From assembly GCA_034434235.1 (NCBI GenBank), contig DAOTZV010000190.1, positions 1 to 41,177 of the forward strand: 41,177 nucleotides of DNA. Reading direction: 5' to 3'. The DNA comes from Anaerolineae bacterium (lineage in GTDB: Bacteria; Chloroflexota; Anaerolineae; CG2-30-64-16). The translations under genes were made by a program, and so were the position numbers. Positions 10,878-35,783 of the stretch are shown one piece after another. Every line of letters starts with the position of its first letter. Position 1 is the first letter of the stretch. The notes beneath the pieces were generated by a model, which saw only the letters and a list, made by a program, of their open reading frames with translations, made no database searches and was not told the origin of the DNA.

Positions 10878-11224
10878 AAATCGAATACCGCCACTGAAAA
10901 GCTGTGAACTGGACTAGTAGGCGTTCGTCAAGGGCCCCAGAGAGCCGACCGTTGAGCTGCGAGGTCGGCGCCGCTGCGGACGTTGAATGGACCAGGGAGC
11001 TGCAGGCCGAAAGGTTCGCCGAGTAGGCCGCGCCGGAGACGTCACCGTTATCACGACCGAGGGGATCGGATCTGTCCTGCGCAGCGTTGCGCGGGCCATG
11101 CGCCAGTGCAATGGCGGCCTGTCCCTGCTAATGAGTGAGGCCGTTGCGCAACGGCCTAATCGGGGTGGCACCGCGGGTGGTTTACAAGCCCTCGTCCCCT
11201 TTTCGGGGCGAGGGCTTTTGATTT
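10878..11224 (+). promoter_or_regulatory. T-box riboswitch leader (probable Trp specificity) with intrinsic terminator
   Basis: T-box consensus AAUCGGGGUGGCACCGCGGGUGG at 11158-11183. An AGAGAG motif lies near the 5' end. A candidate specifier GAAUGGA (UGG + A) is present. Terminator AAGCCCTCGTCCCC-TTTTC-GGGGCGAGGGCTTTTGATTT at 11187-11224 overlaps the T-box 3' arm. Leader is ~430 nt from promoter to ATG. Confidence 0.6.
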
Positions 11225-11310
11225 CCGGCGGGCGCAACCCTCTCCCCTCCCAAATACGCCCGCCAGTTTATCATCAGGCCGAACAGCCCATATCACCCAG
11301 GGAGGGAGCT

Positions 11311-20709: not shown

Positions 20710-20880
20710 AAAGTGATCCTTTCCTTCTTGATGAATGGGCGACGCTTACGTGCCAGGCATCTTGCAGAGTGCCTGGCACGTGACGGCGATTTGAGGCTCC
20801 CAGCCGGTCTGTGACCGGTGTCGTCGGCATGCCAGCACGGTTTGGACGGCCACACGGGGTCACAGACCACAGGCATCCAG
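20710..20880 (-). promoter_or_regulatory. Structured purH 5' leader; candidate riboswitch (possibly ZTP/pfl-like), unverified
   Basis: Minus-strand leader has a perfect 11-bp helix GGUCUGUGACC...GGUCACAGACC, then GGCUGGGAGCC, then a perfect 11-bp hairpin CGUGCCAGGCA-loop-UGCCUGGCACG ~35 nt before the RBS. purH is the classic ZTP-riboswitch target. The motif match is from imperfect memory of the consensus. Confidence 0.3.
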
Positions 20881-20920
20881 CTAACGGCCAGGAAGCGTCC
20901 GCCGGAGGCTGAAGCCGTCC

Positions 20921-20991
20921 GGCTACGAGGTGGAAGCCCCCTCAAGGGGGCTGCATCCCAGGGCGGTTTACCGCCCTTCCACCTGGTAGCC
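20921..20991. other. Compact three-way-junction RNA-like element (outer helix GGCUAC/GUAGCC, inner helix GAGGUGGAAG/CUUCCACCU, two perfect hairpins)
   Basis: GGCTACGAGGTGGAAGCCCCCTCAAGGGGGCTGCATCCCAGGGCGGTTTACCGCCCTTCCACCTGGTAGCC. Nesting read directly from the sequence; strand and function unknown. Confidence 0.3.
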
Positions 20992-21082
20992 CGCCGCTTT
21001 AGCGACGGGCGGACTGCGACGACGAGCCTTGCCTTGGCCGCTGGGCGTTCGCCCCGGCCGCCTCCGCCGGAGGCTGAAGCTA

Positions 21083-21110
21083 TTGCCGGAATAATTTATT
21101 AATCTACAAT
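21083..21110 (+). promoter_or_regulatory. AT-rich promoter-like TTGCCG-16-TACAAT immediately upstream of the 56-bp tandem repeat
   Basis: Read directly in a sharply AT-rich patch (GGAATAATTTATTAATCTACAAT). Confidence 0.35.
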
Positions 21111-21230
21111 AGCTCGCATCCCACGGACGAGCTGAAGCTCGCCCTACTTCGCGTACTGCGAGCTTTAGCTCGCATCCCACGGACGAGCTGAAGCTCGCCC
21201 TACTTCGCGTACTGCGAGCTTTAGCTCGCA
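21111..21230. repeat. Perfect tandem duplication of a 56-bp hairpin-containing unit (2 full copies + 8-bp partial third)
   Basis: Units at 21111-21166 and 21167-21222 are identical: AGCTCGCATCCCACGGACGAGCTGAAGCTCGCCCTACTTCGCGTACTGCGAGCTTT. Each has terminal inverted arms AGCTCGCA/TGCGAGCT and ends in TTT. Confidence 0.9.
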
Positions 21231-21335
21231 ACCGACGGTAGGAAATTATAGTGCAAAAGGTCGCTGCCAACAACCTGCCGACCCCAGCTTCCAGGGTCCC
21301 ATCCCATTTGCATGGCCGGCCGATGATCGGCTACA

Positions 21336-21929
21336 ATGAGGTTCCGACGAAAAGGAGATCGCTTGAACGCTCACGACTTACCGACCACCCCTGTTTCTGA
21401 CGGTTCGCCGACAGCGGCCGAAGTGCTCTGCCTGGCGTGCGGCTTCTGCTGCGACGGCACGTTGCACACCAATACGATCTTGTTGCCGGCGGAGGTGGAA
21501 GCCACTGCGGCGCTCGGCATGACCATCGAGCATCGCGCAGGCCGGCCTGTCTTCAACCAGCCGTGCGCCATGTTTCGCGACGGCCACTGCACGATCTACG
21601 CGCGGCGGCCGCAGACCTGTCGGCATTACGAGTGCGCCCTGCTGAAGCGCCTGCTGGCGGGCGAGATCGCCCTTCTCCAGGCGCTGCGCGTGGTGCGGAT
21701 CGCGCAGGAACAACTGGCCGTGTGGCGCAGCCGGGTGCCCGCTGCGCGCTCGTTCATGTGCTGGCTGAAGGAACTCGAGGCGAGCGCGGCTTCGAGCGGA
21801 GAGGACGCTTCGCTGGCGCAGGCCGTGCTCGCCGACGCGACCCTGTCCGATCACGCGGCCGCGCTGCTGATCTATCTCACCAAGCACTTCGGCGCGAACG
21901 AGGATGCGAACGAGTCGAATTCGGCTTGA
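21336..21929 (+). CDS. YkgJ-family CxxCxxCC cysteine-cluster (putative Zn/Fe-chelating) protein
   Basis: CLACGFCCDG ... QPCAMFRDGHCTIYARRPQTCRHYEC. The true start is probably the TTG at 21363 (AAGGAG RBS at 21352-21357); the track ORF begins at an upstream ATG. Confidence 0.7.
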   Translation: MRFRRKGDRLNAHDLPTTPVSDGSPTAAEVLCLACGFCCDGTLHTNTILLPAEVEATAALGMTIEHRAGRPVFNQPCAMFRDGHCTIYARRPQTCRHYECALLKRLLAGEIALLQALRVVRIAQEQLAVWRSRVPAARSFMCWLKELEASAASSGEDASLAQAVLADATLSDHAAALLIYLTKHFGANEDANESNSA

Positions 21930-22034
21930 CAATTTGCCGCGGGTGTGATAAAAAGCAAATTGCTGCTACCGGTAGTCTTCGGCCGTTTTCTTTTTTGGTT
22001 CTCCCAAAATCGTTTTTGCGCAGGCAGGCCAGAC

Positions 22035-23060
22035 ATGGTGGTCGGGATCAAAGACATCGCAGCCCATTTGGGACTCTCGACTTCGACGGTTTCGCGGGCA
22101 CTCAACGACTACGACGACGTCGCCCCGGAAACCGTGCGCCGTGTCCGGCAGGCCGCCCAGGAGTTGGGCTATACCCCCAGCGCATCGGCGCGCAATCTGC
22201 GTCGGCAACGCACCGACAAGATCGGCCTGGCCCTGTTATATGGCTCTGCCTATACCACCTTCAACGAGTTTTTCGCCGAGTTGATCCGCCTGGTGGCCGC
22301 GGCAGCCGAAAAGCGCGAGTACAACCTGGTGCTCTACACGGGCATGGGCGAGGACCCGTGTCGGCTGACGCGCATCGCGCAGAGCCGCGAAGTGGATGGC
22401 CTGCTCCTGATGGGCGATGTCCCCGGCCTGGATCGCGCCATCCAGAGCCTCCTCGTCGTCGGGATGCCGCTGGTCGTGCTCGGCCGGCCGGTCAACGATC
22501 CGCAGGTGAACTATGTGACGCCCGACACCCTCCAGGCCGCGCGGCTGGCGATCGGCCACCTGGTCGAACTGGGGCATCGCCGGATCGGCTACATCTCGTT
22601 CGTGCCCGCCTCGCGCTACAGCCAGAATCGTTGCATGGCTTATCGGATCGCGCTGGAAGAGAACGGCCTGGCGTTCGACGAGCGGCTGATCGCCTACGCT
22701 TCGCTGGAGCCGGAAAGCAGCGCTCGCGCCCTGGATGCGCTGTTGGCCCTCGATGAGCCGCCGACCGCGGTCTACATGTTCAACGATCGCATGGCCATCG
22801 AGGTGCTGAGACATCTGGCCCGGCAGGGCATTCGCGTGCCGGATCAGATCTCCGTCGTCGGCTTTGATGATATCCGCTCTGCCAGCATGATCACGCCGGC
22901 GCTGACCACCCTCCGCCATCCGATCCCCGAGGTGGCCGAGCAGGCGGTCGGCATCCTGCTGGCGCACCGGTTCAACCCGACCGCAGCAGCCGTCCATCTC
23001 ACGCTGCCGGTCGAAATGGTGATTCGAGAATCCACCGCAGTTTGCAGGAGCACACGATGA
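22035..23060 (+). CDS. LacI family transcriptional regulator
   Basis: Start MVVGIKDIAAHLGLSTSTVSRALN (HTH) at 22035, followed by a periplasmic-binding-protein-like sugar-binding domain. Confidence 0.85.
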   Translation: MVVGIKDIAAHLGLSTSTVSRALNDYDDVAPETVRRVRQAAQELGYTPSASARNLRRQRTDKIGLALLYGSAYTTFNEFFAELIRLVAAAAEKREYNLVLYTGMGEDPCRLTRIAQSREVDGLLLMGDVPGLDRAIQSLLVVGMPLVVLGRPVNDPQVNYVTPDTLQAARLAIGHLVELGHRRIGYISFVPASRYSQNRCMAYRIALEENGLAFDERLIAYASLEPESSARALDALLALDEPPTAVYMFNDRMAIEVLRHLARQGIRVPDQISVVGFDDIRSASMITPALTTLRHPIPEVAEQAVGILLAHRFNPTAAAVHLTLPVEMVIRESTAVCRSTR

Positions 23061-23272
23061 TTCGCGTCGAAGCCGGTGGTTCGTTGCGCACGTATATCGC
23101 GCCGCAAACCACCCTGGACGGGGTCGCTTCGGTCGGCGAAGCAATCCAGAAACTGCATCTGCCGGCCGACGTGGCCCTCATCATCACGGTCAACGGTCGC
23201 ATTGCCCATTGGACGACCCCCCTCCACGATGGCGATGTGTTGCAGCTTTTCCCGACCATCGGTGGGGGATGA
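23057..23272 (+). CDS. MoaD/ThiS-like small sulfur-carrier-type protein (C-terminal GGG)
   Basis: 71 aa, MIRVEAGG...LFPTIGGG. ATG overlaps the LacI stop (ATGA), GCAGGAG RBS. Sits directly upstream of the AOR gene. Confidence 0.55.
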   Translation: MIRVEAGGSLRTYIAPQTTLDGVASVGEAIQKLHLPADVALIITVNGRIAHWTTPLHDGDVLQLFPTIGGG

Positions 23273-23357
23273 GATGGCCAGCCACCAGCAAGGACAATCC
23301 AAAGCAACAAGCACTCCCACAGTCTAATAGCATCCAAACACAGCAAAGAGGTGAATC

Positions 23358-25271
23358 ATGAGCGTCGGAGCAACCTGGGGCAAGATCCTGCACGTGGATC
23401 TGACCGAACGAAAGACATGGGTCGAGACCCCGCCGGATGAGCTGTATCTCAAACTGGTCGGCGGCCGCGCCCTCGAGGCATATCTTCTCCTGCGCGACCT
23501 GCCGGTCGGCGCCGATCCTCTGGGGCCGGAGAATCTGTTGATCTTCGCGCCGGGCGTCTTTCAGGGCACCAACCTGCCGGGCGCCGGCCGCCACAGCGTG
23601 GGCGCCAAGAGCCCGCTGACGGGTGCCATCGGCAGCTCGGAGGCGGGCGGCTGGTGGGGCCACGAGTTCAAGCGCGCGGGCTGGGACGCGCTGGTCGTCC
23701 ACGGCCGGGCCGATTCGCCCGTCTATCTGTGGATCAACGACGACCAGGTCGAGATCCGGCCGGCCGACCATCTGTGGGGCCGCGACGTGGCCGATGTCGA
23801 AAACGCCATTCGCGCGGAGCTCAACGAGCCCCGGCTGCGGGTGGCCCAATGCGGCATCGCCGGCGAGAACCTGGTCCTGATGGCCAATGTCATCAACGAC
23901 AACAATCGGGCGGCCGGCCGCAACGGCCTGGGCGCGGTGATGGGCAGCAAGAAGCTCAAGGCGGTGGCCGTGCGCGGCACCAAGAACGTGCCGGTCGCCG
24001 ACCGCAAGCGCCTGACCGAGCTGTCCAAGTGGTTGGGCGAGAATTACAAGACCCTGGCGGCCTGGGCGCACGAAAAGGGCACGCCGGGCGGCCTGACGGG
24101 CCTCAACCGGGTCAGCGCGCTGCCCACGCGCAACTTCCAGGATCCCGAGTTTCCCGACGCCGAAAGCATCGGCTGGGAGACGCTGCACACCAGCATCCTC
24201 ATCGGCCGCGATACCTGCCAGGCATGCCCCATCGAATGCAAGCAGGTCGTCTCTTACGACGGCGAGGACTTCCCCGACTCGCCCGCCTTCAAGACCCAGG
24301 TGAAGGACCTGGTCAAGATAGATAAGGTCTACGGCGGCCCGGAGTACGAGACCCTCGGCTCCTACGGCAGCACCTGCGGCGTGAACGACATCGTGGCCGT
24401 CTCCAAGGCCAACGAGTGGTCGGCGCGCTGGGGACTCGACCCGATCAGCACCGGCATGACCATCGCGTTCGTCATGGAGTGCGTGGAGCACGGCCTGTTG
24501 ACCGCCGAGATGACGGGCGGCTTCCTGCCGCGCTGGGGCAACGCCAGGGACATGCTCGAGGCGGTGGACATGATCGCCCATCGCCGCGGCTTCGGCGACA
24601 AGATGGCCATGGGCTCCAAGCGGCTGGCGCAATGGATCGGCAAGGGCGCGGAAGAGCACCTGGTGGAGGTCAAAGGCCAGGAGCTGCCGATGCACGAGCC
24701 GCGCTACAAGGCCGCGCTGGGCATCGGCTACGCAGTCGCACCGGTGGGCGCCGATCACATGATGAACATCCACGACTCGGGCTATGCCACGCCGGGGCGG
24801 AGCCTGGAGCGCGTCAACACCGTGTACAAGGTGGGCCCCATGCCGTCCACCGAGTTGAGCACGGAGAAGATGACCCTCTTCTACTACGAGGTCAACTGGC
24901 AGCACTTCCAGGACTGCGCCATCTGCTGCATGTTCTATCCTTACGACTACATCCAACTGGCCGAAGCGCTCAGCGCCATGACGGGCCACGAATACAAGCC
25001 GCTGGACATCCTGGCGGTCGGCGAGCGCGCGCAGCAATTGTGTCGGCTCTTCAACCTGCGCGAGGGCTTCACCGAGAAGGACGACCGGCTGCCGAAGCGG
25101 GTGATGCAGGCGTTCAAGACGGGGCCGCTGGCCGGCGTCGAGATCACCGAGGAGGCGTTCTACCGCTCGCGCCAGACCTGGTACAGCCTGATGGGCTGGA
25201 CGCCCGAAGGGGTGCCCACCCAGGAACGGCTGGCGCAGTTGGGACTGACGGAACTGCTGGAAACGAAATAG
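23358..25271 (+). CDS. Aldehyde:ferredoxin oxidoreductase family (tungsten/molybdopterin-dependent AOR)
   Basis: 637 aa. AOR N-terminal domain (LHVDLTERKTW...GGRALEAYLL) and the 4Fe-4S cysteine motif DTCQACPIECKQ. Length is typical of the AOR family. Confidence 0.9.
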   Translation: MSVGATWGKILHVDLTERKTWVETPPDELYLKLVGGRALEAYLLLRDLPVGADPLGPENLLIFAPGVFQGTNLPGAGRHSVGAKSPLTGAIGSSEAGGWWGHEFKRAGWDALVVHGRADSPVYLWINDDQVEIRPADHLWGRDVADVENAIRAELNEPRLRVAQCGIAGENLVLMANVINDNNRAAGRNGLGAVMGSKKLKAVAVRGTKNVPVADRKRLTELSKWLGENYKTLAAWAHEKGTPGGLTGLNRVSALPTRNFQDPEFPDAESIGWETLHTSILIGRDTCQACPIECKQVVSYDGEDFPDSPAFKTQVKDLVKIDKVYGGPEYETLGSYGSTCGVNDIVAVSKANEWSARWGLDPISTGMTIAFVMECVEHGLLTAEMTGGFLPRWGNARDMLEAVDMIAHRRGFGDKMAMGSKRLAQWIGKGAEEHLVEVKGQELPMHEPRYKAALGIGYAVAPVGADHMMNIHDSGYATPGRSLERVNTVYKVGPMPSTELSTEKMTLFYYEVNWQHFQDCAICCMFYPYDYIQLAEALSAMTGHEYKPLDILAVGERAQQLCRLFNLREGFTEKDDRLPKRVMQAFKTGPLAGVEITEEAFYRSRQTWYSLMGWTPEGVPTQERLAQLGLTELLETK

Positions 25272-25277
25272 TCGGCC

Positions 25278-26753
25278 ATGCGTATCTTGAACCAGGACGT
25301 GTTGGCGTCGCACGGCAACGTGGCCGGACGCAGGGCCCTCGTCGAGATCCTGGAGGCGGGGCTGGAGGCGGCCGACCCGTATCACAACACCCGCCGCCTC
25401 CTCCGCCGGGAGGGCCACTGGCTGATCGTCGGCGGCCGCGACTTCGAGCCCGCCGGCGATCCGCAGGCCGGCGATGAAATCATCAACCTGGATGAGGTGG
25501 ATCGCATCTTCGTCTTCGGCGCCGGCAAGGGCGTGCAGCGGATCGCCAAAGCCATCGAGGATGTGCTGGGCGAGCGGCTGGCCGGCGGCCACGTGATCGC
25601 CAAGCACGGCGACGAGACGATCTGCGAACGGATCGGGGTGACGCACGGCGCGCATCCCGTGCCCGACGAGGGATGTGTCCTCGGATGTCAGCGCATTTGG
25701 GAGTGGTGCCGCAACCCGGATGGCTCGCCCAGGTTGAGCGACCGCGACCTGGTATTCACGATCAGCACGAACGGCGTCTCGGCCCTGTTGACGTGGCCAT
25801 CCGCGGGCATCAGCATCGAGGATGTGCGCCGGCTCACCTACATGATGCAGATCGAGCGGGGCGTGCCCACCGGCGATCTGAACCCGATCCGCAATCACAT
25901 AGATCGGATGAAGGGAGGACGTCTCACCCGCTACCTTCAGCCGGCGCGGGCGATTCACATCATCGGGATCGATCCGGGCTCGTACCGCCAGTTGATCTAC
26001 CGCAATCTGTGGTTGCACAACCTGCCCGATTGCACCACCTTCGCCGACGCGCAGGCGATGTTGCGCAAATGGGATGCCTACGATGAGGCGCCGCCGGCCA
26101 TCCGGGTGCACATCGAACGGGCCGATCCGGCGGAAGAAACGGTGAAGGCGGCCGAGTTTCTCCGCTGGCGCTCGCGCATCTTCGGGGTCATGCCGCACCA
26201 TCTGAGCATGATCCCCACCGCGCAGCGCAAGGCCGAGGAGTGCGGCTTCAGGGCGCTGTGGCTGGCGCACGACCTGCGGGGCGAGGCGAAGGACGTGGCC
26301 AAAGCCGTGGCCGCGGTGGCCCGATGCATCGAAACGATGGGCCAGCCGGTCGAGCCGCCGGTGGCACTCTTCAGCACCGGCGAGATCGTGGTCACGGTGG
26401 GCCAGGAACGCGGGATGGGCGGTCGCAACCAGGAGTATTGCGTCGCGGCCGCGCTGGAGATCGCCGGCAGCCGCCACATCCTGATGGCCGCGGTGGATTC
26501 CGACGGCACCGATGGCCCCGGCATTCAATTCAGCGAGCCGAAGCTGGACGGGGTCACCTGCCTGGCCGGCGGCATCGTGGACGGCGAGACCGCGCGCGAG
26601 GCCGGCGAGCGCGGGGTGAACCTGGTGGAGGCGCTCAAACATCACGACACGTCGCCGGCGCTCTATCGGCTCGACAGCGGCGTCATTGCAACGCAGAACA
26701 TCAGCATCGGCGATTTCGCGGTGACGCTGGTGACGGGAAGGCGGGAGCCGTGA
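25278..26753 (+). CDS. Glycerate 2-kinase, MOFRL family (DUF4147 + MOFRL domains)
   Basis: 491 aa. Domain order and motifs (FVFGAGKG, DSDGTDGP) are typical of GckA/TtuD-type glycerate-2-kinase and hydroxypyruvate reductase. Starts 6 nt after the AOR stop. Confidence 0.8.
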   Translation: MRILNQDVLASHGNVAGRRALVEILEAGLEAADPYHNTRRLLRREGHWLIVGGRDFEPAGDPQAGDEIINLDEVDRIFVFGAGKGVQRIAKAIEDVLGERLAGGHVIAKHGDETICERIGVTHGAHPVPDEGCVLGCQRIWEWCRNPDGSPRLSDRDLVFTISTNGVSALLTWPSAGISIEDVRRLTYMMQIERGVPTGDLNPIRNHIDRMKGGRLTRYLQPARAIHIIGIDPGSYRQLIYRNLWLHNLPDCTTFADAQAMLRKWDAYDEAPPAIRVHIERADPAEETVKAAEFLRWRSRIFGVMPHHLSMIPTAQRKAEECGFRALWLAHDLRGEAKDVAKAVAAVARCIETMGQPVEPPVALFSTGEIVVTVGQERGMGGRNQEYCVAAALEIAGSRHILMAAVDSDGTDGPGIQFSEPKLDGVTCLAGGIVDGETAREAGERGVNLVEALKHHDTSPALYRLDSGVIATQNISIGDFAVTLVTGRREP

Positions 26754-26802
26754 AGCATGAAACGTCAAACGTCAGGCGTCAGAGGGGAAATGAGGGGGAA
26801 TC

Positions 26803-27588
26803 ATGCGCAGGAATAGGTTTCGGGAGTTGCTGAAGGCCGGGAAACCGACGATCGGCACCCGGACGATCAGCGTGTGGCCGGAGCTGGTAGAGGTGGTCGG
26901 CCATACCGGCATGTTCGACTATGTGGAGTTCGTCGCGGAATACGGCGACTACGACCTGCACGACCTGGAGAACTACGCGCGAGCGGCCGAGCTGTTCGAC
27001 ATGTCGTGCATCATCAAGCCCGATCAGGCGAACCAGGCGTGGGTGGCCCAACGGGCCATCGGCGCCGGCTTCCAGGGCGTCAACTTCGTGGATTGCCGCA
27101 CGGCCGACGACGTGCGGGAGTGCGTGCGCATCGTCCGGCCCGAGACGCCGGACGACGGCGGCATCCACGGCTCGGCCCCGCGCCGCTTTGCGCTGATGGG
27201 CTACGGCGGATCGCCCGCCTATGTCCAGGCGCTGCGCGACGTGATCGTGATGATCATGATCGAAAAGAAACAGGCCGTGGAGCACCTGGAAGAGCTCCTT
27301 TCCGTGCCCGGGATAGATATGGTACAATGGGGGCCTTCGGACTATTCGATGAGCATCGGCCGCGGCGGCGAGCGCAACCATCCCGAAGTGAAGGCCGCGG
27401 AGAAGAAGGTGTTCGAGACGGCCCTGAAGATGGGCATCCCGCCTCGCGCCGAGATCAGCTCGGTGGACGACGCCAAACGCTACCTGGACATGGGCGTCCG
27501 CCATTTCAACCTGAACATGGACATCTACATCCTGTTCAATTACTGGAAGACGAACGGCGAGGCGCTGCGCAAGGCGGTGGAAGGATAA
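26803..27588 (+). CDS. HpcH/HpaI-family 2-keto-3-deoxy sugar-acid aldolase (class II pyruvate aldolase)
   Basis: 261 aa. Similar to YfaU/GarL/HpaI-type aldolases (TIGTRTISVWPELVE...MIMIEKKQAVEHLEELL). Confidence 0.8.
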   Translation: MRRNRFRELLKAGKPTIGTRTISVWPELVEVVGHTGMFDYVEFVAEYGDYDLHDLENYARAAELFDMSCIIKPDQANQAWVAQRAIGAGFQGVNFVDCRTADDVRECVRIVRPETPDDGGIHGSAPRRFALMGYGGSPAYVQALRDVIVMIMIEKKQAVEHLEELLSVPGIDMVQWGPSDYSMSIGRGGERNHPEVKAAEKKVFETALKMGIPPRAEISSVDDAKRYLDMGVRHFNLNMDIYILFNYWKTNGEALRKAVEG

Positions 27589-27651
27589 CATGAGCAGGCT
27601 CGCAGGCGGTCTGCGACCGCCGTCTTCCCGGATTGTTGAGACGATACGCAG

Positions 27652-27681
27652 TTGACAGGGCCGCATCTTGTGTGTTATGGT
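27652..27681 (+). promoter_or_regulatory. Sigma70 promoter TTGACA-17-TTATGG with an extended -10 (TGTTATGGT) for the ABC transporter operon
   Basis: Read directly. A weak hairpin GGCGGTCTGCGACCGCC at 27605-27621 precedes it. Confidence 0.5.
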
Positions 27682-27799
27682 ATGCTCGGCCCACGCGACG
27701 GGATGCGAAGGAAAGGGGGTGGTCACCTTCAGCGATCGCTCTGGTGATCTTGATGGCCGCGTTCCATGACCGTATTATTCATGTACCTGAAAAAGGAGG

Positions 27800-29266
27800 A
27801 TGGCCATGTCCAACAATCATGCGATGAGCCGCCGCACCTTCTTGCAGCGGCTGGCTGTCCTCGGTGCGGTGAGTGCGACCGCAGCGGCGTGCGCCCCGGC
27901 GCCGACCCCTGCGGCCCCGACTCCCGCGCCGAAGGCCACGGAACCCGCCAAACCTGCCGCTCCCACGGCAGCGCCGGCAGCGAAGGTCGAAATCAAGGGA
28001 ACTTTGCAGGTCGTGCAGAAGAAGGACTTCTTTCCGGCCATGAACGATTGGTTCCAGGCCGAGGTCAAGAAGTTCTGCCAGGAAAAGGGATGGCCCGTCG
28101 AGATCAGCTATGAGGCCGGTTACACGGGCGGCACGCCGTTCGTCGAGAAGTTCTCGGCCGCAGCGGCAGCCGGCACGCCGGCCGATCTGCTCATGCACAC
28201 CGATGCGATCACGGACTTCGTGCAACTGAAAGTCGTCGATCCCGTCACCGATATCGTCAACGAAGTGGCGGCGAAGTGGGGCAGTCCGTCGGCCCGCCAG
28301 AAGTTCGACATGGTCAAGGAAGGCCAGTGGTACTACGTGCCCTACTTCCAGCGCAGCGATGGCGGCTGGTTCCAGCGGCCGGCCTTCGAGGCCAAGGGCA
28401 TTGACATCCACAAGATCCGGCACTACAAGGACCTGTGGGAGGCCTGTCTGGAGGTCTCGAACCCGGACAAGGAGCTGTACGGCTGGGGCGTTACCATCAA
28501 CCGCTGCGGCGACGGCGACTGGTTCCGCTATCGGGTCATGCACGGCTGGGGCGCGTATGTCCAGGATGAGACCGGCCAATACGTCACCATTGATTCCCCG
28601 CAGATGGTCGAGGCCATGACCGTCATGACCGACCTCTATCTGAAGGACAAGTGGAAGCCGATGTTGCCGCCCGGCGTGCTGGCGTGGACCGATCCCTCCA
28701 ACAACGAAGCCTACCTGGCCGGCAAGCTGGCGTACACGCAGAACGGCGGCACGGTCTACGGCAAGGCGATCCTGGACAACAACCCGATCAAGGACATCAC
28801 GGGCTTCCATTCGCCGGCCGGCGGCCCGGTGAACCTGGAGTTCAACAGCCTGAGCGCGAACTACTTCGCAATGCTGCGCGGGGCGAAGAACCCGGCGGCC
28901 GCGCGCGAGCTGATCCTGCACTTCCTGCTGCCGCTCGAAAGCATGGATGCGATCTTCTCGAACGCGCCCGGCTTCGCGCTCCCCGCTTACGAGAAGCTGT
29001 GGGATGCCTCCAAGTACATCCCCACCAACAAGGTGGCCATGGAGCAGAAGGCCGTGGCGACCTCGCCGACGGGCAACATCGTGCCGGGCACCTATCCGGG
29101 CCCGTCCATGAACCCGGCAATGGCCGCGGCCGCGCAGGCGGGCATCCAAAACGACATGGTGGCCGACATCCTGCGCGGCACGCCCGTGGCCCAGGCCGTC
29201 AAGACCTGCCACGAGCGCTACGTCAAGGTCTTCAAGGAATTCAACCTGCCGGGCGAGAAGAAGTAA
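27800..29266 (+). CDS. ABC transporter extracellular solute-binding protein, family 1 (carbohydrate type), Tat-lipoprotein-like
   Basis: MSRRTFLQRLAVLGAVSATAAAC has a Tat motif and a lipobox. A Pro/Thr/Ala linker precedes the SBP-1 body. Alternative ATG starts at 27806 and 27824. Confidence 0.85.
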   Translation: MAMSNNHAMSRRTFLQRLAVLGAVSATAAACAPAPTPAAPTPAPKATEPAKPAAPTAAPAAKVEIKGTLQVVQKKDFFPAMNDWFQAEVKKFCQEKGWPVEISYEAGYTGGTPFVEKFSAAAAAGTPADLLMHTDAITDFVQLKVVDPVTDIVNEVAAKWGSPSARQKFDMVKEGQWYYVPYFQRSDGGWFQRPAFEAKGIDIHKIRHYKDLWEACLEVSNPDKELYGWGVTINRCGDGDWFRYRVMHGWGAYVQDETGQYVTIDSPQMVEAMTVMTDLYLKDKWKPMLPPGVLAWTDPSNNEAYLAGKLAYTQNGGTVYGKAILDNNPIKDITGFHSPAGGPVNLEFNSLSANYFAMLRGAKNPAAARELILHFLLPLESMDAIFSNAPGFALPAYEKLWDASKYIPTNKVAMEQKAVATSPTGNIVPGTYPGPSMNPAMAAAAQAGIQNDMVADILRGTPVAQAVKTCHERYVKVFKEFNLPGEKK

Positions 29267-29270
29267 AAGG

Positions 29271-31316
29271 ATGAGTCGCATGGGGGGCGGCGCGCGCCGT
29301 CCCCTATGCGGCCGTCGACGCGATCGAGGAGGCATTGTGGCGCAACTCGCACAGACCACCGCACTTTCCCCGAGCGTTCCGCTGCGGCAGGTCCTCAGCA
29401 AACGCCTGCAGCAAGTCCTGGGCCGAGACTGGTTCGAAGCTTACATCTTCATGGCGCCGGCCATGATCCTGCTTGTCGGCATCATTGCCTATCCGTTCCT
29501 GCGCGCGGTCTACATCAGCTTCACGAATACCACCAGCGTCGAGATCGGCCCATTTGTCGGCCTCAAGAACTACATCGAACTCTGGAACGATATCTTCTTC
29601 CGCCGTTCAGTGCTCATCACGGCCAAGTTCACCATCGCCTCGGTGACGCTTAAGCTCCTGATCGGCATTCTGTCGGCCGTGTTGTTGCACCGCCTGGGCA
29701 ATCGCCTGGCCATCCTCACCGGCCTGGTCCTCTTGCCCTGGATTATGCCCGACATCGTGCGGGCCATCACCTGGAAGAGCCTGCTCGACCCGCTCTACGG
29801 CGGTTTCAGCCGCCTGCTGGTGATCCTGGGCCTGGCGAAACATCCGCCGGCTTACCTGGCCAACGTGGACACCGCCCTGACCGCCCTGGTGATCATCAAC
29901 CTCTGGCAGGGCATTCCGTTTTTTACGATCAACCTGCTCGCCGGGCTGAAGGCGATCGACCAGGAGCTTTACGAGGCGGCCGCCATTGACGGCGCCGGCG
30001 CGTGGCGCCAGTTCCTCCATATCACGTTGCCCGGCCTGCGCTACGTCATCATCGTGGTCACCCTCCTGTCGAGCATCTGGACGTTCAACACTTTTACCCT
30101 GATCTACCTGCTCACCGGCGGCGGGCCGATGGATTCCACCAAGGTCTACTCCATCCTTTCGTATAACTACGCCATCGGCGGCCACCGCTACGGCCCGGGC
30201 ATCGCTGTTTCCCTCTCGATGGCGCCGATCCTGGCCATCGTCATCATGATCCTGGGCCGCTACATGATGAGCGGCCGGCGGCTGTACGAAGAACAGCGGA
30301 CGGCCGAGCCGGGCGTCTTTGCCGATCTACTGGCGGCACTGGCATGGCCTTTCAAGCTGCTGATCCGGGGCGTGCTCGCCATCTTCTGGTTCATCAACGA
30401 CAACGTCGAGCGCCTCATCGAGGCCATCGGTCGGCTGGTGCAAGGCATTGCGGCGCGCGGTCGGACGGGGCCCCGCGTCTATCGCAAATCCACCTGGCGT
30501 TCCCAGATTGCGCCGTCGCTCGCCCTGGCGCTGCTCCTGATCTTCGAATTGTTCCCCTTCTATTGGGTCGTCATCACGGCCTTCAAGACCGAATTGCAGA
30601 TCACCCGTTTCCAGAGCATCTATTGGCCGTCTCCCTGGACGCTCGACCAGTTCGTCCGGCTCCTCGGCCCCACGCGCGACTTCCTGGTATGGCTCCGCAA
30701 CACGTTGACCGTTTCGATCATCACTCCGATTATGTCAACTATTCTCGCGGCCGCCAGCGCCTACGCCCTTACCCGCCTGCGTTGGCGCGGGGCCGGTCCG
30801 GTATCGAGCGGCGTGCTGGTCGCCTATCTCATGCCCGGCATCATGATGCTCATCCCGATCTTCCAGCTCTTCACCCGTTTGAAGCTGACCAATACGCTGG
30901 GCGCGCTGATCCTGTCGTATCCGACCTTCAGCCTGCCGTTTGCCATCTGGCTGATGATGGGCTACTATAGTTCCATCCCTGAAGAGCTGGAGGCGGCCGC
31001 GTTGATAGACGGCTGCAATCGCTTCCAGGCCTTTTTCATGATCATCCTGCCCCTGACGCGGCCCGCGCTGCTGGCGGTGATGCTGTTCGGCGTGACGCAG
31101 GCCTGGAGCGAGTTCCTCTTCGCCTACGTCATGATCCAGAGCGCCAACAAGATGACCGTGCCGGTGGGCCTGGCGCAGATGATCATCGGCGATGTGTTGC
31201 CGTGGGGCGAGCTGTGTGCAGCCGCCTTCCTCATGGCCATCCCGGTGCTGATCCTCTACACCATCGGGAACCGCTTCATGGTGGCCGGCCTGACCGCCGG
31301 CGCGGTCAAGGGCTAA
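29271..31316 (+). CDS. Fused ABC transporter permease (MalF-like + MalG-like domains in one 681-aa polypeptide)
   Basis: Two complete binding-protein-dependent permease domains, each with its own EAA loop (AAIDGAGAWRQF... and AALIDGCNRFQAFF...). There is no stop between them. No ABC ATPase gene is nearby. Confidence 0.8.
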   Translation: MSRMGGGARRPLCGRRRDRGGIVAQLAQTTALSPSVPLRQVLSKRLQQVLGRDWFEAYIFMAPAMILLVGIIAYPFLRAVYISFTNTTSVEIGPFVGLKNYIELWNDIFFRRSVLITAKFTIASVTLKLLIGILSAVLLHRLGNRLAILTGLVLLPWIMPDIVRAITWKSLLDPLYGGFSRLLVILGLAKHPPAYLANVDTALTALVIINLWQGIPFFTINLLAGLKAIDQELYEAAAIDGAGAWRQFLHITLPGLRYVIIVVTLLSSIWTFNTFTLIYLLTGGGPMDSTKVYSILSYNYAIGGHRYGPGIAVSLSMAPILAIVIMILGRYMMSGRRLYEEQRTAEPGVFADLLAALAWPFKLLIRGVLAIFWFINDNVERLIEAIGRLVQGIAARGRTGPRVYRKSTWRSQIAPSLALALLLIFELFPFYWVVITAFKTELQITRFQSIYWPSPWTLDQFVRLLGPTRDFLVWLRNTLTVSIITPIMSTILAAASAYALTRLRWRGAGPVSSGVLVAYLMPGIMMLIPIFQLFTRLKLTNTLGALILSYPTFSLPFAIWLMMGYYSSIPEELEAAALIDGCNRFQAFFMIILPLTRPALLAVMLFGVTQAWSEFLFAYVMIQSANKMTVPVGLAQMIIGDVLPWGELCAAAFLMAIPVLILYTIGNRFMVAGLTAGAVKG

Positions 31317-31374
31317 CGATCAGGTTGATCGGCGGAAGAGATTCCGCATCACATATCTCTCTGGGAGCTTGCTC

Positions 31375-32337
31375 ATGAAAGTCCTGTTTGGCCCCAACAT
31401 GATGGGCCTGGAAAAAGGGATCCCTGCGCTCCAGCAGGCCTATCCCGACATCGAGTTCGTGCATTGCGCCGATCCGAAGGCGCTGGCCGAGGCCATCGCC
31501 GACGCCGACATCTACATGGGCCATCTGAATCGCGACGTCTTCCTGGCCGCGAAGCGGCTCAAGTGGGTGCAATCGCCCAGCACCGGGGTGAACTACTACC
31601 TGGCGATCCCCGAGCTGAAGAACGGCGACGTCATCCTCACCGGCGCGAGGGGCACCCACGCCGCGTGCGTGGCCGAGAGCGCCATGGGCATGATCCTCGC
31701 CTTCACGCGCGGGATCCGCGATAGCATCATCCTGCAACCCCAACACAAATGGGCGATGCGCGACCTGCGCTCGAAGCTGATCGAGCTGACCGGCCTGACG
31801 ATGGGCATCATCGCGCTCGGCTCCATCGGCCAGGCGCTGGCCAAGCGCGCCAAAGCGTTCGAGATGCGCATCATTGTCGTGGACAAATATCCCGGCCAGA
31901 AGCCCGACTACGTGGACGAGCTGTGGGGCATGGACCGCCTCGACGACCTGCTGGCCGAAGCCGACATCGTGGTGGTCACCGCGCCCTGGACCCCCGAAGC
32001 TCAGGGCATGATCGGCGCGGCCCAGATCGCGCGGATGAAGCCGAGCGCCATGCTGGTCGGCATCTCGCGCGGGGGCATCATCGACCAGAAGGCGCTGGCG
32101 CAGGCGCTGCGCGAGAAGAGGATCGCCTGTGCCGCGCTGGACGTGTTCGAGCCGGAGCCGCTGCCGGCCGACAGCGAGCTGTGGGACATCGAGAACCTGC
32201 TCATCACCTCGCACATCGCCGGCGGCACGCAATACGAACGCAAGTATCTGTTGGAACTGTTCCAGGAAAACCTGGGCAAATATCTGCGCGGCGAATTCCC
32301 CTTGCGCAACCAGGTAGACAAGCAAAAAGGATTCTAG
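31375..32337 (+). CDS. D-isomer-specific 2-hydroxyacid dehydrogenase family, NAD(P)-binding (glyoxylate/hydroxypyruvate reductase-like)
   Basis: Rossmann motif GLTMGIIALGSIGQALAKRA. The catalytic His region SHIAGGT. Alternative ATG at 31369. Confidence 0.85.
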   Translation: MKVLFGPNMMGLEKGIPALQQAYPDIEFVHCADPKALAEAIADADIYMGHLNRDVFLAAKRLKWVQSPSTGVNYYLAIPELKNGDVILTGARGTHAACVAESAMGMILAFTRGIRDSIILQPQHKWAMRDLRSKLIELTGLTMGIIALGSIGQALAKRAKAFEMRIIVVDKYPGQKPDYVDELWGMDRLDDLLAEADIVVVTAPWTPEAQGMIGAAQIARMKPSAMLVGISRGGIIDQKALAQALREKRIACAALDVFEPEPLPADSELWDIENLLITSHIAGGTQYERKYLLELFQENLGKYLRGEFPLRNQVDKQKGF

Positions 32338-32339
32338 GC

Positions 32340-34691
32340 ATGGCAGAAGCTACGCAGACCGCGGTGGCCGACCGCCTGGCTCAACTGAAGGCGGTCTTTC
32401 CCCATTGGGAGAAAACCAAAGACCTGGTCGACAACCTGCTCGACATCATGCTGAACTACCGGCAGAGCGGACATCCGGGCGGCTCGCGCTCGAAGGTGCA
32501 CGCGCTGCTCACGCTGCTGCTCAGCGGCGCGATGCGCTGGGACATCCGCGCGCCGGAAAAGCGCTTCGCCGATCGCTTCGTGCTGGTGGCCGGGCATACC
32601 GTCCCGTTGATCTACTGCACGATGGCCGTGCTCGACGAAGCGCTGCGCATCAAGTACGAGCAAACCGGCGATGAAAAATATCGCCTGCGCCCCGAACGGG
32701 CCGTCTTCTGGGAAGACCTGCTGGGCTTTCGGCGCTGGCGCGGCCTTCCCGGCCATGCCGAGATGGCCGGCAAAACCCTCTTCCTGAAGTTCAACACCGG
32801 GCCGTCGGGCCACGGCAGTCCGGCCGCGGCCGGCGAGGCGCTGGCGCTCAAGCGCGCCGGCGCGGGCTGCGTCAAGGTGTTCGCGCTGGAAGGGGAAGGC
32901 GGCCTCAGCGCGGGCGCGGCGCATGAGACCATGAACTCGGCCTGGGGCCTGGGACTCGACAACCTGCACTACTTGCTGGACTGGAACGATTTCGGCATCG
33001 ACGCGCATCCGGTCAGCGCGGTGACCTACGGCACGCCGACCGACTGGTTCGGCAGCCACGGGTGGCGCGTCTACGGCGTCGAGCAGGGGAGCGAGTGGGA
33101 GCCGCTGGCGCAGGCGCTCCTCAGCATGACGACCGAGCAAGACCCGCAGAAGCGCCCCTCGGTGATGTGGTTCAAGACGCGCAAGGGCCGCGGGTACGGC
33201 AAGTACGACTATGCCTCGCACGGCGTGCCGCACCCGCTCAACAGCGAGGCGTTCTGGGCCACCAAGCGCGAGTTCGCCGAGCGCTACGGCGTCGAATTCG
33301 TCAACATGGGCGGCCCCGCGCCGGCCGATCCGGAAGCCCTGCGCGCCGAGTTTCGCGCCAACCTGGAGGCGGTGATCGGCGTCCTGCGCCGCGATCAGGC
33401 GCTGGTGGATTACCTGGCCGACACGCTGGTGGCCATCGGCGATTCGGTGCCGGCCGAGCTGCCGACCTTCCGGCTGGGCAAGAAGGGCAACCCCTTCAAA
33501 GACCCCCGTCTGTTCGACTATCGCAACTATCCGGCCGAGCTCTATCTGCCGCCGGGCAAATCGGCCGCCAACCGCAACGCGCTGGCGAAGTGGAGCGCGT
33601 GGATCAACGCGTTCGGCGCGCGGGAGTATGGCCGGCCGATCTTCATCGCCTCATCGGCCGATCTGGCCGGCTCGACTAACATCAGCGGCTTTGCGGAGGC
33701 GTTCGGCGATTTCAAAGGCTACGGCTGGTACGAGCGGGTCGGCAACGATGAAGGCGCGCTCCTGCCGCAGGAGATCACCGAGTTCACCAACTCCGGCATC
33801 ATGGCCGGCATCGCGACCGTCAACCTGGCCGCCGATCCCGAACGGGAGTTCGACGGCTTTTGGGCCGCCAGCTCGACCTACGGCTCCTTCGCGTATCTCC
33901 TGTACGGCCCGATGCGGCTCTTCAGCCAGCTCAGCCAGGACTGCGACCTGAAGGTGGGCAAGGCGCTGTGGGTGGCGGGCCACTCTGGCCCCGAGACGGC
34001 CGAGGATAGCCGAACGCACTTCGGCATCTTCGCGCCGGGGGTCACCCAGCTCTTCCCCGAAGGGCAGATCATCAACCTGCACCCGTGGGAGTACAACGAG
34101 GTGCCGGTGTTGCTGGGTGCGGCGCTGGCCACCGATGCGCCGATCATCGCGCTGCACCTGACCCGGCCGCCGATCACCATTCCCGATCGCGCGAAGCTGG
34201 GCATCCCGTCGCACTTCGAGGCCGCACGCGGGGCCTACATCATCCGCGACTACAAGCCCGGCCGACCGTGCGACGGGACGTTCATCGTCCAGGGCACCAG
34301 CGCGGTGAACAACATCGTGCAGCTGTTGCCGCAACTGGACGAGTCCGATCTGAACATCAAGATCGTCTGTGCGACGAGCCATGAGCTCTTCGCCATGCAG
34401 CCGGCTCCGTATCGCGAGCGGGTCATCGGCCCGGCCGACCGGGTGAATTCGACCGTGATCTGCACGCAGGCGCGGATCACCATGCGCCAGTGGATCTTCA
34501 ACAAGATGGCCGAGGAATACGCCATGACGGCCGACTGGGACAACCGCTGGCGCACGGGCGGCACGGTAGACGAGGTCATCGAAGAGGCGCACCTTTCGCC
34601 CAGATGGCTGATGGAGGGGATCCGGCGCTTCGTGGCCGACAAAGAGAAGCGGATGGCGGCCATTCGCGCAGAAGTGGATGCCGCATGTTGA
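32340..34691 (+). CDS. Transketolase-family TPP enzyme, atypical long form (783 aa)
   Basis: TPP motifs SGHPGGS and GEGGLSAG (GDG-like) plus TK-like pyrimidine-binding and C-terminal domains. The ATG is 2 nt after the upstream stop. Confidence 0.8.
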   Translation: MAEATQTAVADRLAQLKAVFPHWEKTKDLVDNLLDIMLNYRQSGHPGGSRSKVHALLTLLLSGAMRWDIRAPEKRFADRFVLVAGHTVPLIYCTMAVLDEALRIKYEQTGDEKYRLRPERAVFWEDLLGFRRWRGLPGHAEMAGKTLFLKFNTGPSGHGSPAAAGEALALKRAGAGCVKVFALEGEGGLSAGAAHETMNSAWGLGLDNLHYLLDWNDFGIDAHPVSAVTYGTPTDWFGSHGWRVYGVEQGSEWEPLAQALLSMTTEQDPQKRPSVMWFKTRKGRGYGKYDYASHGVPHPLNSEAFWATKREFAERYGVEFVNMGGPAPADPEALRAEFRANLEAVIGVLRRDQALVDYLADTLVAIGDSVPAELPTFRLGKKGNPFKDPRLFDYRNYPAELYLPPGKSAANRNALAKWSAWINAFGAREYGRPIFIASSADLAGSTNISGFAEAFGDFKGYGWYERVGNDEGALLPQEITEFTNSGIMAGIATVNLAADPEREFDGFWAASSTYGSFAYLLYGPMRLFSQLSQDCDLKVGKALWVAGHSGPETAEDSRTHFGIFAPGVTQLFPEGQIINLHPWEYNEVPVLLGAALATDAPIIALHLTRPPITIPDRAKLGIPSHFEAARGAYIIRDYKPGRPCDGTFIVQGTSAVNNIVQLLPQLDESDLNIKIVCATSHELFAMQPAPYRERVIGPADRVNSTVICTQARITMRQWIFNKMAEEYAMTADWDNRWRTGGTVDEVIEEAHLSPRWLMEGIRRFVADKEKRMAAIRAEVDAAC

Positions 34692-35134
34692 GCCGGACGC
34701 TGTCCGAGAGGGAATGGCCGAAGGAGCCGGGGTCATATGTGCTGCTGCTCCAGGTCGTGTCCCCGCTGACGTTTGAAGCCGGCCGACTGGGCATGATCAC
34801 CCTGCCCGCCGGCCGGTATGCTTACGTCGGCACCGCGCGGGCGACCGGCGGACTGCGCGTCCGGCTGGCGCGCCATGTGCGTTCGCAGAAGCGGCTCTAC
34901 TGGCACATAGATTACCTGGTCCAACGGGCGCCGATCTGGGGCGTTTACTGGCAAGTGACGCCGATTCCCCTGGAGTGTCGGTGGGCACAGGCGCTTCTGC
35001 GCCTCCCCGGCGCCAGCGCGCCTGTGCGCGGCTTCGGCAGCAGCGACTGTCGTCGCGGCTGTCCGGCCCACCTGGTGCGCCTGCCCGATGGCATATCGGC
35101 CGAGGAGGTGGAGGAGGCGCTTGGGGGCGATTGA
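34685..35134 (+). CDS. DUF123-like (GIY-YIG-fold) hypothetical protein
   Basis: 150 aa, HIDYL motif. The ATG overlaps the transketolase stop. Its stop codon (TGA) is supplied by the first repeat module (GGGGCGATTGA). Confidence 0.5.
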   Translation: MLSRTLSEREWPKEPGSYVLLLQVVSPLTFEAGRLGMITLPAGRYAYVGTARATGGLRVRLARHVRSQKRLYWHIDYLVQRAPIWGVYWQVTPIPLECRWAQALLRLPGASAPVRGFGSSDCRRGCPAHLVRLPDGISAEEVEEALGGD

Positions 35135-35783
35135 AATCGCGGCTAACGGGCGCCGCAGCGCCGCGGCACCCACCTGCGTGGGTGCACGCGTCGGCGCAAG
35201 GCCGACGCCCAGCCGCAGGCTCCTTAGCCGCGACCTCGGTCGCCCCAAAAGCACCGAGCGGCGCAGTAGCGCCGCAATCCAAAACGACCTCGGCGCAGGC
35301 CGACGCCCAGCCCAGGTTTGGGGCGATTGAAATCGCGGCTAACGGGCGCCGCCGCGCCGCCACACCCACCGCCGTGGGTGCACGCGTCGGCGCAGGCCGA
35401 CGCCCAGGTTCGGGGCGATTGAAATCGCGGCTAACGGGCGCCCTGGCGCCGCTGCACCCACCTCCGTGGGTGCACGCGTCGGCGCAAGGCCGACGCCCAG
35501 GTTCGGGGCGATTGAAATCGCGGCTAACGGGCGCCACGGCGCCGATGCACCCACCGCCGTGGGTGCCCGCGTCGGCGCAGGCCGACGCCCAGCCGCCGGC
35601 TCCTTAGCCGCGACCTCGGTCGCCCCACCGTTCAATCGCCCCACCATTCGGTCGCTCGCCGCCGCACCCACCTTCGTGGGTGCGGGCCGCGTCGGCGCAG
35701 GCCGACGCCCGGCCGCCGGCCCCTTAGCCGCGACCTCGGTCGCCCACAGGGCCCGCCGGGCCGCGGGTTGGGGCGATTGAAAT
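35124..35783. repeat. Second tandem array (~6 units) of the mosaic MITE/BIME-like repeat, truncated at its right end by the IS
   Basis: Module A GGGGCGATTGAAATCGCGGCTAA at 35124, 35326, 35409 and 35504, with a partial copy at 35771. E modules TTAGCCGCGACCTCGGTCGCCC at 35223, 35603 and 35723. Confidence 0.85.

Follow-up and report, generated by a model that had tools for sequence, protein, structure and literature searches.

A gene cluster in the window studied here, positions 1 to 41,177 of contig DAOTZV010000190.1 of an Anaerolineae bacterium, is read, with evenly divided confidence, as a LacI-controlled locus for carbohydrate or sugar-acid catabolism and as a ferredoxin-linked bacterial counterpart to the non-phosphorylative Entner-Doudoroff (ED) pathway's lower branch. 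Its core consists of five genes encoding a LacI-family repressor, a MoaD/ThiS-like protein, a tungsten-type aldehyde:ferredoxin oxidoreductase (AOR), a glycerate kinase homologue of the MOFRL family and a predicted lyase of the HpcH/HpaI fold. An earlier note on this DNA had placed these five genes at 22035-27588 and had proposed that AOR, kinase and lyase are functionally linked. All five are found there on the plus strand with strong family matches in a Pfam search (Table 1), the E-values of which, from 3e-9 (ThiS) to 6e-108 (AFOR_C), leave no concern about chance matches, and the proposed link gains support from the gene order and neighborhoods of related loci, as detailed below.

In the scheme that we infer, all substrates and the direction of flux included, a CUT1-type ATP-binding cassette (ABC) importer would take up the substrate, which would be converted to a 4-hydroxy-2-oxo acid, the 2-oxo group possibly being supplied by a D-2-hydroxyacid dehydrogenase encoded downstream. 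Judging from its fold and its retained metal ligands, the HpcH-like lyase would then split the 4-hydroxy-2-oxo acid into pyruvate and a short aldehyde, and the AOR would oxidize the aldehyde to the acid, passing the electrons to a ferredoxin encoded elsewhere. Most economically, the aldehyde would be glyceraldehyde and the product glycerate, which the MOFRL kinase would phosphorylate to 2-phosphoglycerate (2-PG), to be turned into phosphoenolpyruvate by enolase.

A close known counterpart is the archaeal non-phosphorylative ED pathway of the Thermoproteus tenax type, which comprises a 2-keto-3-deoxy-(6-phospho)gluconate (KD(P)G) aldolase, a ferredoxin-dependent glyceraldehyde oxidoreductase, a MOFRL glycerate 2-kinase and enolase. 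In archaea the KD(P)G aldolases belong to class I and are of the DHDPS/NAL type, whereas the lyase of the window combines an HpcH/HpaI fold with a changed active site, and a DHDPS-family gene is found only in one related locus (L012, see below). The locus further differs from the T. tenax branch in lacking a linked glucose dehydrogenase or gluconate dehydratase, in its additional genes for a 2-hydroxyacid dehydrogenase and a transketolase-like (TK-like) enzyme, in its bacterial host and in its LacI/ABC operon organization. What is shared is the sequence of a C-C lyase, a pterin-dependent ferredoxin-linked aldehyde oxidation and a MOFRL kinase (PMC2063504), to which a sister operon (L086) adds enolase. 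The likeness to archaea drawn in the earlier note is loose, matching the logic of the T. tenax type but not the aldolase, and inexact for Picrophilus, as Picrophilus and Thermoplasma employ an NADP-dependent glyceraldehyde dehydrogenase and not an AOR (PMC2063504).

To follow the conservation of the cluster, the window proteins were compared by tblastn with 80 genome loci that surround relatives of the AOR (56-98% identity; loci are referred to by L numbers). The closest AORs belong to metagenome-assembled genomes (MAGs) of Anaerolineae/Chloroflexota, the best genome locus being L005 with 98% AOR protein identity. The order LacI-MoaD-AOR-MOFRL-HpcH-[ABC]-2-hydroxyacid dehydrogenase-TK is kept in L001-L003 and L005, which are Anaerolineae species-level genomes, while in a fifth Anaerolineae genome (L004) the contig end cuts the block after MOFRL; across L001-L005 the AORs are 84-98% identical. 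The LacI copies, 64-91% identical, occupy the same position in L001 and L003-L005, and the 2-hydroxyacid dehydrogenase shows 77-98% identity in L001-L003 and L005. The enzymes stay even where the ABC transporter has been exchanged, as in L002 and L003, whose binding protein has given way to an unrelated one (25-29% identity; 25-41% with the permeases included). A sister cluster (L086), covered from MOFRL onwards, has the order MOFRL-HpcH-SBP-permease-enolase-2-hydroxyacid dehydrogenase-RraA-unknown-TK, with identities of 79% for the TK-like protein, 89% for the lyase, 74% for the kinase and 82% for the dehydrogenase.

The association reaches beyond this block. A Ktedonobacterales MAG (L012) holds MoaD-AOR-MOFRL with an AOR 68% and a kinase 64% identical to those of the window, together with a divergent LacI and a CUT1 transporter, so that the pairing of AOR and kinase predates the cluster seen here. 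Where the window has the HpcH-like gene, L012 carries a DHDPS-family gene that is truncated at the end of its contig and whose best solved relatives are L-2-keto-3-deoxyarabonate dehydratase and the 2-keto-3-deoxy-acid aldolase YagE; the 2-oxo-acid enzyme beside the AOR-kinase pair is thus exchanged between two unrelated folds, both of them for 2-keto-3-deoxy sugar acids. Contexts of the lyase and the TK-like gene were collected through their encoding contigs, a small and uneven sample with about nine contexts for the lyase subfamily. In L088/L089, the stop codon of an AOR with only 39% identity to that of the window is overlapped by the gene of a lyase orthologue (69%), in a cluster that also holds GH116, LacI, a CUT1 transporter and an FGGY kinase. 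In L094/L095, a lyase (66%) lies two genes after a molybdenum (Mo)-hydroxylase-type aldehyde oxidoreductase with its own ThiS gene, in the company of a nitroreductase. Three different pterin aldehyde oxidoreductases beside one lyase subfamily point to a real functional coupling, within the limits of so small a sample. A wider generalization is put forward tentatively, as a possibility held with less than even confidence: the lyases of this type, called K-type here after an active-site lysine, may form a large subfamily that habitually passes its aldehyde to a pterin-dependent oxidoreductase (either a Mo-hydroxylase or a tungsten AOR, the latter from two distant lineages at least, and in each case with a ThiS/MoaD-like gene of its own). 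Along with the MOFRL kinase, the 2-hydroxyacid dehydrogenase and the TK-like enzyme, they may make up a non-phosphorylative, ferredoxin-yielding route for carbohydrates or sugar acids in Chloroflexota that has yet to be described.

Among proteins of solved structure, the AOR is closest to the Pyrococcus furiosus AOR (PfAOR; 1aor, 376 bits, full-length alignment), followed by further aldehyde:ferredoxin oxidoreductase entries (9mqx, 360 bits; 9g7j, 317 bits), AorB of Aromatoleum aromaticum (8c0z, 325 bits), FOR (288 bits) and, at about 180-200 bits, WOR83, BamB and WOR5. It is hence placed nearest to the broad-specificity P. furiosus AOR and not to GAPOR, an identity that was rejected, since model NF040818, whose cut-off is 1300, gives 45 bits over 80 residues. 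A phmmer alignment to 1aor shows that the CxxCxxxC motif and the distal Cys, which ligate the [4Fe-4S] cluster, are kept along with the equivalents of PfAOR Glu313 and His448, and that about 21 residues are inserted after the cluster-binding motif. No gene for WorS (4x[4Fe-4S]) or WorN (FAD) adjoins the AOR gene, whose neighbors are MoaD-like and MOFRL, and the protein is therefore a Class I enzyme as defined in a survey of tungsten-containing oxidoreductases (WORs) (PMC13328260). With characterized members of that class, such as P. furiosus AOR and CsWOR87, it shares the single WorL-type subunit, the cluster cysteines, the active-site Glu and His, the adjoining ThiS/MoaD-like gene and the absence of WorS/WorN (PMC13328260; PMC1779556); it departs from them in the insertion and in its position in a carbohydrate operon, directly before a glycerate kinase.

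The MOFRL protein aligns over its full length with Pyrococcus horikoshii PH0495 (1x3l, 190 bits, residues 29-489), which has been characterized as a glycerate kinase forming 2-PG, and with the glycerate kinase of Thermotoga maritima (2b8n, 140 bits). It remains below the cut-offs of two NCBIfam equivalogs (85 vs. 550 and 78 vs. 670 bits), both of which are lineage-specific archaeal models, and is therefore assigned at the level of the family only. All characterized MOFRL proteins are glycerate 2-kinases that convert glycerate to 2-PG (PMC2063504), and the enolase gene of L086 is consistent with a kinase predicted to form 2-PG.

The lyase has HpaI as its best solved relative (79 bits). Like HpaI, GarL and RhmA (YfaU), it has a TIM-barrel HpcH_HpaI domain, a similar length and the Glu and Asp metal ligands, as 120 homologues without exception keep E154 and D180 (E149 and D175 in Escherichia coli HpaI). 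When 1.84 billion representatives were searched exhaustively, 129 clusters emerged at E<=1e-30, and a pattern of E-x-E-Y, E-K and D is common to most of 46 deep, full-length representatives of about 28-57% identity. From these comparisons the lyase is best described as a predicted member of a deep, uncharacterized subfamily of the HpcH/HpaI fold, for which a metal-dependent 2-oxo-acid lyase is the most likely chemistry, with pyruvate or hydroxypyruvate as the nucleophile. In favor of the scheme, enzymes of the HpaI family are able to cleave 2-keto-3-deoxygalactonate to pyruvate and glyceraldehyde (PMC8560999). HpaI-type aromatic catabolism was rejected, as the active site differs and the neighbors are carbohydrate-related; aromatic-catabolic neighbors, which would have spoken for it, were not seen, nor does the AOR fall in an unrelated clade, the two findings that the earlier note had named as fatal to its scheme.

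Several observations weigh against the reading of the locus as a lower ED branch. The first concerns the lyase itself, which the earlier note had taken for a class II HpcH/HpaI aldolase: the fold is kept, but in an alignment to E. coli HpaI and to the 3qz6 protein K72, Y47 and V44 stand at the positions of the catalytic Arg70, His45 and Asp42. Among the 120 homologues (66-98% identity), K72 and Y47 never vary and position 44 holds Leu or Val, and K72 recurs in 42 of the 46 deep representatives. In HpaI, Arg70 and His45 are reported to be important for C-C cleavage and enolate stabilization, the Arg contacting the C4-OH (PMC8560999). With both residues missing, the lyase is not classifiable as an HpaI-, GarL- or RhmA-type aldolase, the NCBIfam equivalogs of which it misses by a factor of 4-8 (GarL 90/407, HpaI 86/369 and RhmA 56/441 bits), and its reaction may differ from a pyruvate-aldol cleavage. 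Second, the co-conserved genes for the 2-hydroxyacid dehydrogenase and the TK-like enzyme have no role in a simple non-phosphorylative lower branch, and the scheme of the earlier note leaves them unexplained. Third, supporting functions are missing from the 41-kb window, in which neither a sugar dehydrogenase, a lactonase or a dehydratase that would supply a 2-keto-3-deoxy acid, nor a tungstate transporter (tup/wtp), nor, in any frame, the ferredoxin motif CxxCxxCxxxC[PAG] was found; MoeA/MoaB, MoeB, MoaE and ThiF genes are absent from it as well. The earlier note had pointed to the dehydratase, tungstate transport and MoaB/MoeA as telling companions. Fourth, the AOR clade is not pathway-specific: among the 80 loci the HpcH-like lyase occurs only in L001-L003 and L005 and the MOFRL kinase only in L001-L005 and L012, and in a quick neighbor-joining tree, in which the AORs of the block group with those of L006 and L037 and then with L012, the closest outgroup (L006 and L037) lacks the block. 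Finally, an aldehyde oxidoreductase is present in only 3 of the ~9 sampled contexts of the lyase subfamily; in the contexts without one (L087, L090, L091, L096 and L097) the lyase is accompanied by CUT1 transporters, a lactonase, a DUF1537 acid-sugar kinase, DHDPS or a 2-hydroxyacid dehydrogenase, or stands alone.

The two co-conserved genes and the altered active site might be accommodated if the chemistry ran through hydroxypyruvate. The 2-hydroxyacid dehydrogenase has glyoxylate reductases and D-2-hydroxyacid dehydrogenases as its best solved relatives. The TK-like protein belongs to a family of more than 4700 homologues, the best-scoring of which are ~70% identical, scores at most 70 bits against solved transketolases and shows GEG at the site of the GDG metal motif. 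Its phosphate-binding motifs may be retained, and an alignment with a split transketolase of L084 gave no clue to its substrate residues. Its gene is found in a tandem of AOR (41% identity), ThiS and TK in L081, in the order Aldedh-2-Hacid_dh-AP_endonuc_2-TK in L085, in the order Zn-ADH-AP_endonuc_2-TK-split TK-...-CUT1 in L084 and alone in L082. Proteins without assignment that lie beside lyase or TK-like genes (L082, L086, L090, L091 and L096) show no kinship to one another or to proteins of the window. Some HpcH-family aldolases accept hydroxypyruvate as a donor, and the Lys/Tyr active site would fit a nucleophile other than pyruvate. The K-type lyase might thus cleave a 2-keto-aldonate (a 3,4-dihydroxy-2-oxo acid) to hydroxypyruvate and an aldehyde, after which the dehydrogenase would make D-glycerate for the MOFRL kinase, the AOR would oxidize glycolaldehyde or glyceraldehyde, and the TK-like enzyme would handle a ketol intermediate. 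In keeping with this, the co-conserved dehydrogenase resembles glyoxylate/hydroxypyruvate reductase, such dehydrogenases recur beside the lyase subfamily or the TK-like gene (L085, L086 and L096), and MOFRL kinases are classically paired with hydroxypyruvate routes, for example in the serine cycle and in tartrate utilization (PMC2063504). We nevertheless consider this variant unlikely, although the likeliest of the alternatives, since the support for hydroxypyruvate is indirect, three of the dehydrogenase genes in other loci are only 27-34% identical and perhaps not orthologues, and the part given to the TK-like protein is speculative.

The varied contexts of the AOR raise the question of whether it belongs to the pathway at all. 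The MoaD-like protein in front of it starts within the LacI stop codon (in a shared ATGA) and ends in ...TIGGG, as the earlier note had observed, and a homologue lies directly upstream of the AOR in 41 of the 80 loci, with the GG kept in all 41 aligned. The further suggestion that this protein is dedicated to the cluster is not upheld: the gene precedes most AOR orthologues of 65-79% identity whatever their neighborhood, and is therefore a property of the AOR module and not of this pathway. The adjacency has moreover been described before, as a probably mobile cluster that makes the pterin for the tungsten cofactor (Iyer, Burroughs and Aravind 2006; PMC1779556), with a related arrangement in aorD/aorE of Aromatoleum (PMC6365974), and the partner, since named WorX (PMC13328260), presumably has its part in making the pterin cofactor of the AOR. 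Roughly every second MoaD-like protein linked to an AOR extends 1-20 residues past the conserved Gly-Gly (e.g., L003, L004, L010, L011, L017, L018, L022, L023, L031-L035 and L038); these tails resemble ubiquitin-type precursors that need C-terminal processing, and some could be gene-calling artifacts.

At 56-79% AOR identity, the MoaD-AOR pair adjoins CUT1 binding proteins and permeases, an iron-type alcohol dehydrogenase (Fe-ADH) with CoA-transferase III, URO-D with DUF1638, LacI with an amidohydrolase, or MttB-like, enolase-superfamily, thiolase and Zn-ADH genes, and the AOR is best seen as a versatile aldehyde-oxidizing module that has been inserted into many catabolic operons. From such diverse contexts, from the presumed mobility of the pair (PMC1779556) and from the broad specificity of the characterized Class I WORs (PMC13328260), it could be argued that a general aldehyde-scavenging or detoxifying module has come to lie in the operon by chance, the glycerate being derived from elsewhere. 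This is distinctly improbable in our view, as the adjacency of AOR and MOFRL (a 6-bp gap here) persists as far as L012, two other, unrelated aldehyde oxidoreductases have been recruited beside the same lyase subfamily, once with overlapping genes, and in L085 the TK-like gene is preceded, two genes upstream, by an NAD-type aldehyde dehydrogenase instead of the AOR and ThiS of L081. A comparable interchange of a tungsten AOR and an NAD aldehyde dehydrogenase is known from the phenylalanine pathway of A. aromaticum, in which a thiamine diphosphate (ThDP)-dependent decarboxylase delivers the aldehyde to either enzyme (PMC6365974); the A. aromaticum AOR differs in being a three-subunit, NAD-linked enzyme of aromatic amino-acid catabolism, whereas that of the window is single-subunit and encoded in a sugar-type operon. 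URO-D-family genes recur near HpcH-like, TK-like and AOR genes (L082, L084, L087, L017/L019 and L088), and among them are one LacI::URO-D fusion of 740 aa, in L088, and one that adjoins DUF1638.

The DHDPS-family gene of L012, with L-2-keto-3-deoxyarabonate dehydratase as its best solved relative, and the top NCBIfam match of the lyase, GarL at 90 bits and far below the cut-off, would also be compatible with a route of the Weimberg or glucarate kind, in which the lyase or the DHDPS-family enzyme produces a semialdehyde (of 2-oxoglutarate or tartronate) and the AOR replaces the NAD(P)-dependent semialdehyde dehydrogenase. We judge the chances of this to be poor, because the glycerate kinase, and the enolase of L086, would be superfluous to a Weimberg route, tartronate semialdehyde is reduced and not oxidized on the way to glycerate, and pentonate and glucarate dehydratases are absent from the 41-kb window. 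A reductive, biosynthetic direction, in which the AOR would reduce an acid with reduced ferredoxin and the lyase condense the aldehyde with pyruvate, is least credible by far: AORs work in either direction in vitro (PMC9295118; PMC12727526 for acetate reduction), but the setting with a LacI repressor and an ABC importer, the kinase and the L086 enolase, which point to central metabolism, and the lack of biosynthetic genes downstream all speak against it.

The locus that is read here as a ferredoxin-linked lower ED branch is probably made up of two neighboring transcription units, 22035-27588 and 27800-34691 (Table 1). The genes of the first are separated by 85 bp (MoaD-AOR), 6 bp (AOR-MOFRL) and 49 bp (MOFRL-HpcH-like). 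A gap of 211 bp then leads to the gene of the binding protein, and the hairpin and the sigma-70-like match within it suggest, as consensus evidence only, that two units adjoin there. The sugar ABC importer expected downstream is indeed encoded, in the form of a binding protein of the CUT1 type and a double permease fused into one chain, and the 2-hydroxyacid dehydrogenase and TK-like genes are tightly packed behind the permease with a 2-bp gap between the two, so that an end of the cluster at 27588, as earlier assumed, is too early, the co-conserved genes extending it to 34691. The only solved relative of the binding protein, maltose-binding protein at 27 bits, gives no clue to the ligand; the 681-aa permease fusion is also found in L001, L005 and L086, and no ATPase gene for the CUT1 transporter is present in the cluster.

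Table 1. Features of the locus and their supporting matches (positions in the 41,177-nucleotide window).
Feature	Position	Strand	Evidence
CxxCxxCC (YkgJ-type putative Zn/Fe-chelating) protein, 197 aa	21336-21929	+	Pfam PF03692 34.5 bits
LacI-family repressor, 341 aa	22035-23060	+	Pfam LacI HTH 51 bits, Peripla_BP_1, Peripla_BP_3 117 bits
MoaD/ThiS-like beta-grasp protein (WorX), 71 aa	23057-23272	+	Pfam ThiS 37.8 bits vs. cut-off 22.5
Single-subunit (Class I) tungsten-type aldehyde:ferredoxin oxidoreductase (AOR), 637 aa	23358-25271	+	AFOR_N 259 bits, AFOR_C 362 bits
Class II (MOFRL) glycerate kinase homologue, 491 aa	25278-26753	+	DUF4147 125 bits, MOFRL 67 bits
HpcH/HpaI-fold predicted metal-dependent lyase, K-type subfamily, 261 aa	26803-27588	+	Pfam HpcH_HpaI 63 bits vs. 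cut-off 25
Hairpin (27605-27621), then sigma-70-like match TTGACA-18-TATGGT (27652-27681)	27603-27681	+	Consensus matches only
CUT1-type extracellular solute-binding protein, 488 aa	27800-29266	+	Pfam SBP_bac_8 45.7 bits
Fused MalF/MalG-like ABC permease, 681 aa	29271-31316	+	Two BPD_transp_1 domains
D-2-hydroxyacid dehydrogenase (glyoxylate/hydroxypyruvate reductase-like), ~320 aa	31375-32337	+	Pfam 2-Hacid_dh_C 187 bits
Transketolase-like ThDP enzyme (TK-like), 783 aa	32340-34691	+	Pfam Transketolase_N 61 bits

The LacI protein scores far below the cut-off of every NCBIfam equivalog. Its sole operator candidate is a perfect 8-bp inverted repeat, CAATTTGC-17 nt-GCAAATTG, at 21930-21962 before the LacI gene, with a spacing atypical for LacI operators; no copy of it precedes the transporter genes, and the window shows no enrichment of the 8-mer. 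Rfam elements, the molybdenum/tungsten cofactor (Moco/Wco) riboswitch included, were not detected in 20800-35800 at E-values up to 1. Upstream of LacI, the CxxCxxCC protein has homologues of 55-74% identity at the matching position in L003-L005; its membership in the unit is uncertain, and it could be a redox partner or unrelated.

The flanks of the cluster within the window, the G+C content of which is ~65%, hold the housekeeping genes PurH, PheS/T, TIM and GatB. Across 35835-41146 the G+C content falls from ~0.66 to 0.58, and the minus strand of this part, which may be an acquired segment, has two open reading frames (ORFs), one of 513 aa that weakly matches ISL3 transposase and one of 242 aa without a match, and also encodes an SPFH-domain protein (475 aa) and a radical SAM protein (513 aa). 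At 10987-12699 lies a gene for a PALP-domain protein of 570 aa in total, the N-terminal extension of which (~190 aa) has no match, and at 52-2688 an 878-aa ORF with an SBP_bac_5 domain, the start of which may be over-called.

The MoaD-AOR pair as a widespread module is already known. What appears to be new is the position of a bacterial Class I tungsten-type enzyme before a glycerate kinase in a sugar-type operon, and the recurrent pairing of Lys-type HpcH-like lyases with pterin aldehyde oxidoreductases; no paper mentioning both 'HpcH' and 'aldehyde ferredoxin oxidoreductase' was found. Two widespread enzyme groups without an assigned function, the Lys-type HpcH-like lyases and the 783-aa TK-like proteins, are brought to attention by the locus, and their neighborhoods make both of them tractable. 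Bacterial tungsten oxidoreductases have mostly been discussed as aldehyde detoxifiers, and a survey of 2026 lists only 5 of 92 clades with a defined physiological role (PMC13328260). The locus offers a concrete pathway role, in which the AOR would oxidize the aldehyde fragment from the cleavage of a sugar acid and supply a glycerate kinase. If this is true, one orphan clade of bacterial tungsten oxidoreductases would gain a defined physiological role, and abundant uncultured Chloroflexota would obtain low-potential ferredoxin electrons from the oxidation of carbohydrates.

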